DNA of 64,000 bases. Origin: Dictyostelium discoideum. Lineage: Eukaryota. The DNA lies in assembly GCA_000004695.1 (NCBI GenBank), contig CM000154.2, positions 2,112,001 through 2,176,000 on the forward strand, given 5' to 3'. A program made the position numbers and the translations under genes. This document shows, piece after piece, positions 55,513 through 60,226 of this stretch. Numbering within the stretch: the first letter of the stretch is position 1; every line of letters starts with the position of its first letter. The notes beneath the pieces are model-generated. The model searched no databases and was not told the DNA's origin. It saw only the letters and a list, made by a program, of their open reading frames with translations.

Positions 55513-56664
<1,152 letters not shown>

Positions 56665-56857: not shown

Positions 56858-58750
56858 TTAAATATTTCCATCTTCTAATGCTACTTGAAGTATTCTTGAT
56901 AATTCTAAGAATCTATTTGCAAAATTTGGATGATTTTGCATAGCGATATTCATTAATTCAATACCACCAGAACGAGCTATTGTTAATTTATTTTTAGGAT
57001 TACATGAAAGGTTTTTCAAGGCACCTCTACCTTGCATTTGAACACCACTATGGAAAGGATGATTTCTCATTGCCTTTAGGATTAAATTGATACCACCTTC
57101 ACGAGCAATTGTTTCTTCATTTGCTTCATCTTGATAAGCTAAATTGATGAGAGCAGCACAACCTTCATCTTGAACGTCTGGATCATCTGGATGATTTGAC
57201 ATTGCACCCAAAACCAATTGAATACCATTTTGACGAGAGATCATATTTTTATTATCTTCATTACGAGCCAAATTTCTAAGAGCACCACAACCATTCAATT
57301 GTAAATCAGGATGAGAAGAAAAGGATCTCATTGCACGTAAAATTAAACCGATACCACCTTCTTTTGCACTTAAAACCTTATTACTATCGTTACAACCTAA
57401 ATTTCTTAGGGCACCACAACCTTGTGTTTGAATTCCAATATGATTTGGATGATTTTTCATTGCGGTTGCAATCGATTGAATACCACCCTCAATTGCCACT
57501 CTACTTTCACTAACATCATTACGTGCAAGATTTCTCAATACAAAGCTTGTATTATATTGTACACCTGGATTCATCATATGATTTTTCATTGCTTGTAATA
57601 TCAATTGAATACCACCTTGCTCGACAACTGATAGATAGTTATCATTTGAATATAAACCCATATTGTTTGGTGAATCACAAGTTAAATTTCCTAATGCACC
57701 ACATGCATCTTCTTGAACACCGGCATCATATGGATGATTCTTCATTGCTTGTAAAATTAAACTAATACCACCATATCTTGCAATTAAACTTTCATGTTCA
57801 TCCTCTTTTCTTTGTCTATAACTTAATCTCTTTAAAATATAACAAGTTTCTCTTAAAATCATTGGATTATGTAAATTTTCATTCATTACTCCAATAATTT
57901 TTTTAATTTGACCACTTTCATCTGATTTATCAAAATTTTTATAATTATCCTAATTTTTTAAAATAAAAAAAATAATAAAATTAATATAATTTAAAAAAAA
58001 ATAACCAAACTAAAAACTATTTATATAAATCTTACAGTTGGTAATCTATCGATATAACATAAAATCATTTTTGATTGAAATGAAGTTGGATTTGACCATC
58101 TTGAATTAAATTGCATAGCATAATATATTCTTGGACAAGTTTGTTCAAATAATAATTCCCAAAATTTGAAAACATCAACAATGTACCAAATTCTTTTACA
58201 AGTTAAACTTATTCTCCAAAGATCATTTGCAGATAAGAAAGATAATAAATGTACCAACATTTCAGTTGGAATTAAAAAGATATCGAATTGATTATTTTCA
58301 TCATAATGATTGGAATTATTATTATTATAGTTTGAAACATTTAATTGATTATTTACATTATTACTACTTTCAATTAAATTACCATTATTTGAATGATGAT
58401 GATGATTATTATTGTTGTTGTTGTTGTGGTTATTAGTGCTACCATTTGAAGATAATCCAAAAGGTGAAATATAAGTTTTTGAAACTGATGGAATTAAAGT
58501 ATTTGGCGAACTATAATTTGACATTGATTTAGCAGTCATTTTGATAAGGAATTTTATTTTTTGAATCGTTTCTTGTTCTGATAAAAAATCGTTTTGATCT
58601 TCTATACCTTCTAAAAAATTAAATTGATTAAAAAGTTCTTCTTCTTGTTGTTCTAGTTGTTGTTTTTGTTTTTTTTGTAATTCTAATTCGTTATCCTCCT
58701 CTAATTTATTAAATTTGGATAGTATACTACTACTACTACTACTACTATTA

Positions 58751-58845
<95 letters not shown>

Positions 58846-59048
58846 TTCTTCTAAAATATAATTTGATGTTGTTGTACTTTTTATAAAATTATTTTGATTT
58901 TCTAAAAGAATTTGTTCAATATAATCCTCTGTAATATTGTTTTTTAAATATCCAATTGTAAATTTAATTATTAAACGTTCAATTAAGTCACTGTTTAAAA
59001 ATGAGTTATTAAAAATGTTCGTATTGGTATTATTACTATCGTTGTTAC

Positions 59049-59082
<34 letters not shown>

Positions 59083-59214
59083 TATATTATTGTTAATACT
59101 ACTATTATTTAACAATGGTTTTTGTTGTAATTTTAAATGTTGTTGTAATTTTAAATGTTTAAATAATAAATTCATTTTAAATAGTTTTTTATTAAATAGA
59201 CTTCCACAATCATT

Positions 59215-59217
<3 letters not shown>
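56858..59217 (-). CDS. F-box and armadillo-repeat protein, two exons (58036..59217, 56858..57949), about 757 aa
   Basis: Exon 1 has a poly-N/S-rich N-terminal region and an F-box (IFLIPTEMLVHLLSFLSANDLWRISLTCKRIWYIVDVFKFWELLFEQ), ending ...YIDRLPT at a GTAAGA donor (plus 58030-58035). The AAAATTAG acceptor (plus 57950-57951) is in phase 0 to DNYKNFDKSDESGQIKKIIGVMNENL... This is followed by at least 7 ARM-type repeats (GGIQLILQAMKNH...VQ..ACGALRNL...). Both phases were verified by hand. Confidence 0.75.
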
Positions 59218-59458: not shown

Positions 59459-59560
59459 TTATATGTATGTATGTGTTGGAGTGTGGAAGTGTGTGGGTGT
59501 GTGGTGTGGTTGGAGTGTGGAAGTGTGGGGTGGTGTGGGGGTATGTGTGTGTGTGTAGAG
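59459..59560. repeat. G/T-rich tandem repeat (imperfect duplication of a GGAGTGTGGAAGTGTGGG unit)
   Basis: tatgtatgtatgtgttggagtgtggaagtgtgtgggtgtgtggtgtggttggagtgtggaagtgtggggtggtgtgggggtatgtgtgtgtgtg. It stands out sharply against the AT-rich background. Confidence 0.8.
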
Positions 59561-59773: not shown

Positions 59774-59864
<91 letters not shown>

Positions 59865-59866: not shown

Positions 59867-60145
59867 TGTTTCTATAACTTTGGAAACGACAAAGATAGAA
59901 TTTAATATATATATGTATAAAAAAAAAAATAATAAAAAAAAAAAATAAAATAATGAATTAAAAAAATAATTTTTATTATTTTTTAAAATAAAATTTTTAT
60001 TTTAAATAATTTGTTTAATGTTGGGATTGGAAATAAAATTTAATTTTGAATTTAATATATATATTTCCTAATTTATATATATTTATTATTTTTATTTATA
60101 TTTATGACAACTTAAAATTATTATTATTATTTTTTATTATTCTAA

Positions 60146-60226
<81 letters not shown>

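Follow-up and report, generated by a model that had tools for sequence, protein, structure and literature searches.

Within a window of 64,000 nucleotides of Dictyostelium DNA (the whole stretch analysed), two open reading frames on the minus strand, one of 398 aa (58021..59217) and one of 342 aa (56858..57886), raise the question of whether they belong to one gene and, if so, what a protein joining an F-box to an array of armadillo (ARM) repeats might do. The best explanation of the whole, to which we give a probability of about 0.9, is the two-exon aardvark gene (aarA), encoding a protein with a disordered N-terminus, an F-box, a linker, and an ARM array, together with the mechanism that we infer for it.

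Gene structure

From start to stop codon the gene occupies the interval already proposed in a sequence-only reading of this DNA, whose coordinates proved correct, and the spliced product has 757 aa. The elements of the gene are as follows.

56858..59217, minus strand: aarA (aardvark) gene, from the ORFs, the splice reconstruction, and orthologs named Aardvark at 78-93% identity
59218..59253, minus strand: A36 run directly 5' of the ATG (leader), with in-frame stops further upstream
58036..59217, minus strand: coding exon 1, aa 1-394, with N/S-rich disorder, S/T-ladder motif, F-box, and start of the linker
57950..58035, minus strand: intron, 86 nt, GTAAGA...TTAG, phase 0, 91.9% A+T
56858..57949, minus strand: coding exon 2, aa 395-757, with end of the linker, ARM cap, and ARM repeats 1-7
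56858..56860, minus strand: TAA stop codon
56826..56831, minus strand: AATAAA, candidate poly(A) signal, 27 nt past the stop, from sequence only

Only one plausible GT..AG pair with canonical signals restores a single frame across the locus, with the donor GTAAGA at 58035 and the acceptor TTAG ending at 57950. The A+T content of the intron compares with 68-80% in the exons, stops occur within it in both exon frames, and the frame of exon 1, extended beyond the donor, meets a stop after four codons. The frame is also restored by an alternative 137-nt phase-1 intron whose donor lies at 58058; it was rejected because that donor, GTTATA, is non-consensus and because the intron would remove residues kept in all orthologs.

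The splice junction (aa 394|395) is crossed without gaps in an alignment of six dictyostelid orthologs, and D. purpureum, P. violaceum, and C. fasciculata each have a phase-0 intron at exactly this codon boundary, after aa 394, whereas other introns differ. For the ortholog P0004, at least eight mRNA-like contigs carry one uninterrupted ORF across the splice site and, set against P. violaceum genomic DNA, skip exactly the conserved intron. The phase-0 join across this intron, as first proposed, is thus supported by the alignment, the three shared introns, and the P0004 contigs.

The reading of the two ORFs as independent genes, an F-box protein and an ARM protein starting at ATG 57886, is effectively refuted and has a negligible probability: the exon-2 ORF does open with an ATG, but the 21 codons between the acceptor and that ATG are conserved coding sequence and part of a confidently modelled helix, the intron position is kept in three species, the ortholog mRNA-like contigs form one continuous ORF, exon 1 stops soon after its donor, and the published Aardvark protein has both domains (PMC4265756, PMC9485057, PMC3989760). 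Near the start of exon 2, D401, D404, E405, and G407-K411 are invariant in the ortholog alignment, and it is the conserved coding sequence upstream of ATG 57886 that shows exon 2 not to be a separate gene. The orthologs do not bear out the suspicion that the locus could easily be mis-annotated as two genes, since every model joins both parts; the sole defective model, from D. purpureum, is truncated at an assembly gap, not split.

Identity of the gene

The gene is almost certainly the well-studied, beta-catenin-like aarA of the social amoeba Dictyostelium discoideum, or of a near-identical strain. A published F-box string, orthologs bearing the name Aardvark, and the actin next to the gene are the grounds for this identification, which does not come from a full-length match. 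Orthologs share 78-93% identity over 97-100% of a 447-aa query covering the F-box, linker, and ARM region; those from T. lacteum and C. fasciculata carry the name Aardvark, and a phase-0 intron separating the F-box and linker from the ARM domain is shared with the ortholog genes of three species. The adjacent actin exactly equals the major actin of D. discoideum AX4. The order of parts (N/S-rich N-terminus, F-box, ARM) is the same as in D. discoideum Aardvark (AarA), with no difference detected, and AarA was reportedly studied by Grimson et al. (2000, Nature 408:727), Coates et al. (2002), and Dickinson et al. (2011). The F-box string given for aarA (..PTEMLVH..SANDLWRISLT-CKRIWYIVDVF-KFWELL, ARM; PMC9485057, Fig. 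S3), which was machine-read with small letter losses, matches the F-box in the window. Among the sequences compared, the combination R334/Y345/I346/V347 is found only in the window protein.

Looking up the exact 757-aa protein in the protein collection gave no match, and the homology search of that collection returned no relative above 93% identity. Four long neighbouring ORFs are absent from it as well, with only actin matched, probably owing to introns, different start codons, or a source genome that is not indexed. No tRNA genes were found within the 64-kb window.

The architecture has a published history. PMC3989760 ascribes the F-box and ARM layout of Aardvark to Grimson et al. 2000, PMC4265756 also mentions it, and a table of F-box-protein candidates includes aarA, with 'ARM' given for the substrate-receptor domain (PMC9485057, Fig. 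S3). The idea that the locus is a new or uncommon find and would define a distinct SCF receptor is not supported, as the gene is aarA and its layout has been known since 2000 (PMC3989760, PMC9485057). The plant ARABIDILLO proteins are a second known F-box/ARM class (PMC3989760, PMC4982054). Because gene, product, and layout have been published since 2000, the finding is correct and ordinary and adds nothing as a discovery; with both the splice and the domains read correctly from raw DNA, it makes a clean validation case. UniProt, too, annotates this architecture.

Domain architecture

The domains and tracts of the encoded protein are listed from the N-terminus.

59028..59109, minus strand: first Asn-rich low-complexity tract, ~aa 37-63
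58746..58845, minus strand: (AAT)33 tract, long poly-Asn within aa 124-163, running into poly-Ser (TRF)
58459..58518, minus strand: short linear motif NYSSPNTLIPSVSKTYISPF, aa 234-253, conserved within otherwise disordered sequence
58147..58284, minus strand: F-box DIFLIPTEMLVHLLSFLSANDLWRISLTCKRIWYIVDVFKFWELLF, aa 312-357 (Pfam, PDB matches, ortholog conservation, published string)
58036..58146, minus strand: linker, exon-1 part, aa 358-394, helical, conserved
57920..57949, minus strand: linker, exon-2 part, aa 395-404, conserved
57821..57919, minus strand: two-helix ARM cap, aa 405-437 (AlphaFold exon-2 model)
57683..57796, minus strand: ARM repeat 1, aa 446-483 (AlphaFold model)
57527..57640, minus strand: ARM repeat 2, aa 498-535, after a 14-aa loop (AlphaFold model)
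57398..57517, minus strand: ARM repeat 3, aa 539-578 (AlphaFold model)
57269..57388, minus strand: ARM repeat 4, aa 582-621 (AlphaFold model)
57137..57259, minus strand: ARM repeat 5, aa 625-665 (AlphaFold model)
57008..57127, minus strand: ARM repeat 6, aa 669-708 (AlphaFold model)
56867..56998, minus strand: ARM repeat 7 and long C-terminal capping helix, aa 712-755 (AlphaFold model)

The N-terminal 310 aa are 32% Asn, and the poly-N/poly-S region described earlier for exon 1 is confirmed by the two tracts, the (AAT)33 tract having period 3, 33.3 copies, and 97% matches in TRF. Within this region the motif NYSSPNTLIPSVSKTYISPF is 90-95% identical in three orthologs, versus 14-31% for its flanks, and has a pLDDT of ~30 in the ortholog model. 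Its residues S236, T240, S244, and T248 make up a spacing-4 S/T ladder of four rungs that occurs nowhere else in the protein and would form a putative GSK3-type phosphorylation site. This N-terminal spacing-4 ladder recalls the S33/S37/T41/S45 ladder of beta-catenin. Searches of the aarA protein for a DSGxxS degron (D[ST]G..[ST]) and for a classical basic nuclear localisation signal found neither.

HMM searches of the joined protein (PF12937, PF00646, PF00514) bear out the order in which an F-box precedes seven or more ARM repeats. At ~aa 315-354, F-box-like PF12937 scores 27.3 bits (cut-off, 24.3) and F-box PF00646 scores 21.0 bits (cut-off, 20.5), each only just exceeding its cut-off. The domain keeps all of the consensus anchors (I-P, E, a hydrophobic heptad, DL, CKR-W, and FW), 27 of its 46 columns are invariant among orthologs, and its best PDB sequence matches are the F-boxes of FBXW7, AnkB, and Skp2. 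Structures were modelled separately for the exon-2 translation and for one full-length ortholog. The ortholog model has three helices in the F-box, at pLDDT 51-65, followed by a helical linker of ~90 aa to the ARM array. No LRR family was detected between F-box and ARM in a Pfam scan at E<=1.

Pfam Arm (PF00514) scores 58.8 bits on the joined protein (E=4e-16), and the unit GGIxLILxAMKNH...VQxxGCGALRNL occurs seven times, at aa 454, 506, 549, 592, 635, 679, and 722. The exon-2 model (pLDDT 93.7, pTM 0.90) consists of a two-helix N-terminal cap (residues 11-24 and 29-43 of the model) and seven full three-helix repeats, and Foldseek gives a probability of 1.00 to designed ARM proteins, Vac8, APC, and beta-catenin. 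As in the ARM superfamily, tandem three-helix units of ~42 aa wind into a right-handed superhelix, and helix 3 of repeats 1-6 bears an Asn ladder. As modelled, this seven-repeat solenoid with its Asn ladder forms a C-terminal protein-interaction domain that would be able to present substrates.

Identity among orthologs is 73-92% in the F-box and 81-93% in the ARM part, and ~25% in the N-terminus; the F-box, linker, and ARM parts are under strong purifying selection.

Comparison with other ARM-repeat proteins

The ARABIDILLO and PHYSCODILLO proteins of plants likewise have an N-terminal F-box followed by an ARM array, and ARABIDILLO proteins have been described as the nearest plant relatives of Aardvark (PMC3989760). 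Their F-box is reported to interact with ASK proteins, forming SCF complexes (PMC3989760), and ARABIDILLO/PHYSCODILLO proteins are proteasome-unstable through the F-box region (PMC4982054). Whereas ARABIDILLO has LRRs between F-box and ARM, Aardvark has the helical ~90-aa linker with no Pfam LRR, and phylogeny places the two in separate clades (PMC3141441). A literature search joining Arabidillo, Aardvark, and F-box found no papers.

With beta-catenin and plakoglobin, Aardvark has in common the ARM solenoid fold and sequence similarity (E=1e-13 for plakoglobin and 8e-11 for beta-catenin). Binding of Aardvark to Dictyostelium alpha-catenin in vitro is attributed to Dickinson et al. 2011 in PMC3216324, and alpha-catenin binding, a junction/polarity role, and a GSK3 linkage are reported features that Aardvark shares with these catenins (PMC3216324, PMC3135261). 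Beta-catenin has twelve ARM repeats and a DSGxxS phosphodegron for beta-TrCP, whereas Aardvark has seven plus a two-helix cap and lacks the degron; Aardvark bears its own F-box, whereas beta-catenin is the substrate of one; and GSK3 reportedly activates Aardvark and does not destroy it (PMC3135261). Published trees place Aardvark outside the beta-catenin clade (PMC4265756, PMC3141441).

ARMC6 and Vac8 match aarA as well as or better than beta-catenin and plakoglobin do. The best animal homologs in the protein search are ARMC6 (E=3e-20), in agreement with the reciprocal-BLAST result of PMC4265756, and yeast Vac8 is the best natural solved-structure match to the ARM array. Identity of ARMC6 and Vac8 to aarA is only 20-32%, and the ARMC6 matches P0053 and P0054 have no F-box among their precomputed Pfam domains.

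In distant homologs, an F-box, a U-box, or a BTB domain accompanies a related ARM array in the same protein, and one of these homologs, P0012, has the whole F-box-linker-ARM layout at 31% identity. In the U-box/ARM (plant PUB-type) and BTB/ARM adaptors the same type of array is tied to an E3-recruiting domain, although the E3 module differs from the F-box of Aardvark and the proteins come from metagenomic or protist sources. That ARM arrays are joined to E3-recruiting U-box and BTB domains suggests that the array is a substrate-recognition module.

Does Aardvark act through Skp1 and cullin-1?

Aardvark is required for actin-associated junctions and tip-epithelium polarity and for normal stalk and tip formation, as stated in PMC3216324, PMC4265756, PMC3135261, PMC1431509, and PMC3989760, and it lies downstream of GSK3 in prespore gene expression (PMC3135261). 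Whether it also engages Skp1 and cullin-1 is a question that pre-exists in the field and is not raised by the present finding; it matters for understanding the relation between ubiquitin-ligase adaptors and catenin-type proteins of adhesion and polarity. In the Skp1 interactome study, aarA is in class 'ab' only and is absent from four co-IP/proteomics data sets, a non-detection that the authors consider explicable by low expression or stage (PMC9485057). Tip and stalk cells express Aardvark at culmination. None of the papers found names a substrate of F-box-dependent ubiquitination.

In the mechanism we propose, the ARM groove with its Asn ladder would hold partner proteins by their extended peptide segments, GSK3 would probably act through the conserved S236/T240/S244/T248 ladder, and the F-box would most likely dock Skp1. 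By docking Skp1, Aardvark would also act as a cullin-1 adaptor, ubiquitinating an ARM-bound partner or itself. That the F-box binds Skp1 in vivo has slightly less than an even chance, and a role as an SCF receptor is plausible. The full proposal, that Aardvark may be an SCF receptor ubiquitinating ARM-bound proteins at the cortical alpha-catenin complex and that ligase-coupled ARM arrays may be ancestral, is tentative and on balance doubtful, though compatible with the strong constraint on the F-box and with the recurrence of the architecture. If true, the Dictyostelium 'beta-catenin' would be, mechanistically, an E3 adaptor bringing Skp1-cullin-1 to the cortical alpha-catenin complex, and animal beta-catenin would have arisen, by loss of the ligase module, from an older state in which catenin-like ARM arrays were coupled to ubiquitin ligases through F-box, U-box, or BTB fusions.

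Somewhat less probable is that the main role of the F-box is to destabilise or autoregulate the protein, SCF turning over Aardvark itself while the ARM array presents no other substrates. ARABIDILLO/PHYSCODILLO proteins of plants owe their proteasome-dependent instability to the F-box and the region next to it (PMC4982054), Aardvark has a conserved GSK3-like S/T ladder upstream of its F-box, and GSK3 is reported to regulate Aardvark (PMC3135261). However, the U-box- and BTB-fused relatives point to substrate recognition by the ARM array, and the Skp1 co-IPs contain no aarA signal (PMC9485057).

That same lack of signal, in vegetative and slug Skp1 interactomes with two antibodies (PMC9485057), favours a further and still less likely explanation, in which the F-box is not for SCF (being structural or part of a non-SCF Skp1 complex) and Aardvark serves purely as a scaffold of the catenin type that connects alpha-catenin with cortical partners, although the interactome authors themselves offer low expression or stage for the non-detection (PMC9485057). 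The published functions found, in PMC4265756, PMC3216324, PMC3135261, and PMC1431509, all relate to junctions, polarity, and GSK3 signalling, and holozoan Aardvark-like proteins lack an F-box (PMC4265756). While the Pfam scores of the F-box are marginal, all its consensus anchors are retained and its best matches are Skp1-bound F-boxes. Across every dictyostelid group sampled it is also conserved as strongly as the ARM repeats, 27 of its 46 columns being invariant, which argues against a pure scaffold.

Gene structure of aarA

In a window of 77% A+T, with poly-Asn coding tracts and short, extremely A+T-rich introns, the mechanical ORF list places two minus-strand ORFs at the locus, of 398 aa (58021..59217) and 342 aa (56858..57886). 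Every GT..AG pair between them was scanned and retained if it restored a single open frame, which left two. One is an 86-nt phase 0 intron (58035..57950; donor GTAAGA, acceptor TTAG), exactly where the sequence-only reading had put it. Its A+T content is 91.9%, versus 68-80% in the exons, and it has stop codons in both exon frames; on read-through past the donor, the exon 1 frame ends after four codons. The alternative, a 137-nt phase 1 intron, was rejected because its donor (GTTATA) is poor and residues conserved in every ortholog would be lost. The joined product has 757 aa. An A36 run lies 5' of the ATG, with in-frame stops further upstream, and an AATAAA is read 27 nt 3' of the TAA stop. 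Translation may start at M1 or at M15, in an N-terminus that is unconserved in orthologs. Features within and beside the gene are as follows.

59122..59159, minus strand, perfect 18-nt tandem duplication in the aarA 5' coding region, encoding HLKLQQ-HLKLQQ (aa 20-32)
58459..58518, minus strand, conserved island NYSSPNTLIPSVSKTYISPF (aa 234-253) in a disordered region that is elsewhere unconserved
55534..56664, plus strand, intronless actin gene with a 376-aa product identical to the "Major actin" (ACT1_DICDI group) of D. discoideum AX4

Four independent lines favor one gene, so that a two-gene reading is effectively excluded by sequence comparison and modeling. First, the joined protein aligns without gaps to six dictyostelid orthologs over aa 394|395, and the 21 codons from the acceptor to the first ATG of the exon-2 ORF are conserved coding, with D401, D404, E405, and G407-K411 invariant. 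Second, when the exon structures of three ortholog loci were rebuilt under an exact-translation requirement, a phase 0 intron fell at the codon boundary matching aa 394 in Dictyostelium purpureum (64 nt), Polysphondylium violaceum (73 nt), and Cavenderia fasciculata (72 nt), whose remaining introns are not common to them. Third, a single ORF of 1869 nt, without interruption, encodes the ortholog P0004 on eight or more contigs (~2.2 kb, from different samples). As these lack precisely the junction intron and the second intron relative to P. violaceum genomic DNA, and have near-identical 3' ends directly past an AATAAA-like signal, they behave like spliced mRNA assemblies. Fourth, a confident helix in the structure model spans the ATG of the exon-2 ORF.

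The concern that the two halves could be mis-annotated as separate genes was not borne out, as none of the dictyostelid ortholog models compared is split. The sole defective one is the 442-aa model of D. purpureum, the first Met of which lies inside the F-box because a run of ~306 N (an assembly gap) is directly upstream (locus L001 of GL871573.1, 5081..5470). Because in-frame sequence before the annotated start extends the F-box (..FDLFLIPTE), this public model is truncated N-terminally.

Domains and fold

Profile searches of the joined protein place an F-box at approximately aa 315-354 (F-box-like PF12937, 27.3 bits, cut-off 24.3; F-box PF00646, 21.0 bits, cut-off 20.5), followed by an ARM array (Arm PF00514, 58.8 bits, E=4e-16). 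ARM_LRRK2 and Atx10homo_assoc, both general ARM-like models, also match. The F-box keeps every consensus anchor (I-P, E, hydrophobic heptad, D-L, C-K-R-x-W, F-W), and this segment alone, searched against all PDB chains, matches its counterparts in FBXW7 (E=0.01), Legionella AnkB, and Skp2.

The AlphaFold2 model of the exon-2 translation, built from a 44-sequence alignment (pLDDT 93.7, pTM 0.90), has a two-helix N-terminal cap and then seven complete ARM repeats of three helices each, the last bearing a long capping helix; the proposed "seven-plus" repeats were thus an accurate count. The GGI-type unit recurs seven times, beginning at aa 454, 506, 549, 592, 635, 679, and 722. Repeats 1 to 6 carry an Asn ladder in helix 3 (N482, N534, N577, N620, N663, and N707). 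Such a ladder is an ARM consensus feature that binds extended peptide backbones in importin-alpha and designed ARM proteins. The Foldseek matches in PDB (14-23% identical) include designed ARM proteins, Vac8, APC-ARM, and beta-catenin, and sequence matches rank Vac8 (2e-17), plakoglobin (1e-13), and beta-catenin (8e-11). In a full-length model of the T. lacteum ortholog (86% identical), the N-terminus is disordered and is followed by three short helices of the F-box, by helical elements of the linker, and by the solenoid; the modest confidence of the F-box helices (pLDDT 51-65) is not unexpected without Skp1.

Every structural detail of the sequence-only reading was confirmed, to the credit of an unaided reading. 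Its further proposal, an SCF receptor of an uncommon and distinct kind that could be taken for two genes, finds only partial support: the architecture is real, but earlier work had described and annotated it, and an SCF function of Aardvark is a published candidate.

Identity and relation to known families

The nearest proteins are dictyostelid: D. purpureum (93%), T. lacteum, P. violaceum, and P0004 (86%), C. fasciculata (78%), and P0006 (75%), two of which bear the source-given name "Aardvark." D. discoideum Aardvark, related to beta-catenin and first reported by Grimson et al. in 2000, has an F-box besides ARM repeats (PMC4265756, PMC3989760), and "aarA" is among the F-box-protein candidates, with "ARM" as substrate-receptor domain, in Fig. 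S3 of a Skp1-interactome study (PMC9485057). The F-box string printed there (..PTEMLVH..SANDLWRISLT-CKRIWYIVDVF-KFWELL) equals the window sequence save for a few machine-reading letter losses. Because of this match, an R334/Y345-I346-V347 combination found only in the window among the sequences compared, and the adjoining exact D. discoideum actin, we conclude on sequence grounds that the gene is aarA. By similarity to the proteins named Aardvark and by shared gene structure, its product belongs to the Aardvark orthologous group; with the D. discoideum reference, the comparison covered the F-box string.

A 15-billion-protein collection has no match for the exact 757-aa product or for four further long single-ORF products encoded in the window, and it yielded Aardvark relatives up to 93% identity and none above; the AX4 actin is present. 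The absences may reflect intron-bearing gene models or a source genome that was not indexed.

By its domains, the product classifies as an F-box protein. By the features tested, it falls outside the beta-catenin family: it has seven ARM repeats where beta-catenin has twelve, no DSGxxS degron was found in the protein, and ARMC6 and Vac8 match it equally well or better than beta-catenin, consistent with published phylogenies. The reported alpha-catenin binding is nevertheless shared with beta-catenin. Nor is the product of the ARABIDILLO type, as no LRR block of that type was found in it.

Aardvark-type ARM fusions to U-box, BTB, U-box plus kinase, PARP, caspase, or F-box domains were also seen in protist or metagenome proteins (P0008, P0010, P0023, P0024, P0030, P0037, P0027, and P0012). 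At 31% identity, the alignment with P0012 runs from the F-box over the linker and on into the ARM repeats, and P0012 has the whole layout on an intronless 1.8-kb contig.

Conservation and possible function

Among orthologs, identity is 73-92% in the F-box (27 of 46 columns invariant), 81-93% in the ARM array, and ~25% in the N-terminal 230 aa; constraint on the F-box and linker is about that on the ARM array. Of the orthologs, P0002, P0003, and P0004 keep the island NYSSPNTLIPSVSKTYISPF at 90-95% identity, and P0005 (C. fasciculata) and P0006 have lost it. Within it, S236, T240, S244, and T248 (S-x3-T-x3-S-x3-T) form the only four-rung, spacing-4 S/T ladder in the whole protein, a candidate site of processive GSK3 phosphorylation with the pattern as expected. 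In prespore differentiation, a positive action of GSK3 on Aardvark has been described (PMC3135261).

Aardvark contains an alpha-catenin-binding motif, binds Dictyostelium alpha-catenin in vitro, and with it organizes the epithelial-like polarity of the culminant tip (PMC3216324, PMC4265756); when aarA is lost, the stalk-tube neck has no actin-associated junctions and ectopic tips form (PMC1431509). In distant homologs the ARM array is fused to an F-box, U-boxes, and BTB, kinase, PARP, or caspase domains, which suggests a portable recognition module, often joined to E3-recruiting domains. Given these E3-domain fusions, the conservation, and the published functions, Aardvark is most likely a bifunctional adaptor. 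The ARM groove would bind partner peptides, the pre-ARM region would bind alpha-catenin, and the F-box may dock Skp1-cullin-1 for ubiquitination of the bound partner or of Aardvark itself.

In the Skp1-interactome study, aarA was detected in none of four Skp1 co-IP data sets, vegetative or slug, and its only tags are "a" (UniProt-annotated) and "b" (BLASTp-predicted) (PMC9485057). We put engagement of Skp1 by the F-box at slightly under an even chance (roughly 0.45). The F-box may instead serve self-destabilization, as reported for the plant proteins ARABIDILLO and PHYSCODILLO. A further rival is that it is not used for SCF.

Surroundings of aarA

The actin gene is convergent with aarA, and since only 193 bp (90.7% A+T) separate the stop codons, the two 3' UTRs necessarily touch or overlap. 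A G/T-rich island (59483..59555), made up of 2.8 copies of an imperfect 26-nt unit (GTGGGAGTGTGTG...), lies about 270-340 bp 5' of the aarA start and differs in composition from the A+T-rich intergenic DNA around it. Further upstream are the trinucleotide tracts (TAT)30 (59774..59864) and (ATT)37 (60117..60226). The poly-L and poly-Y ORFs listed at these tracts were dismissed as mechanical artifacts. Read on the minus strand, the tracts would give poly-Asn or poly-Ile-like runs; they may be part of a neighboring gene or intergenic microsatellites.
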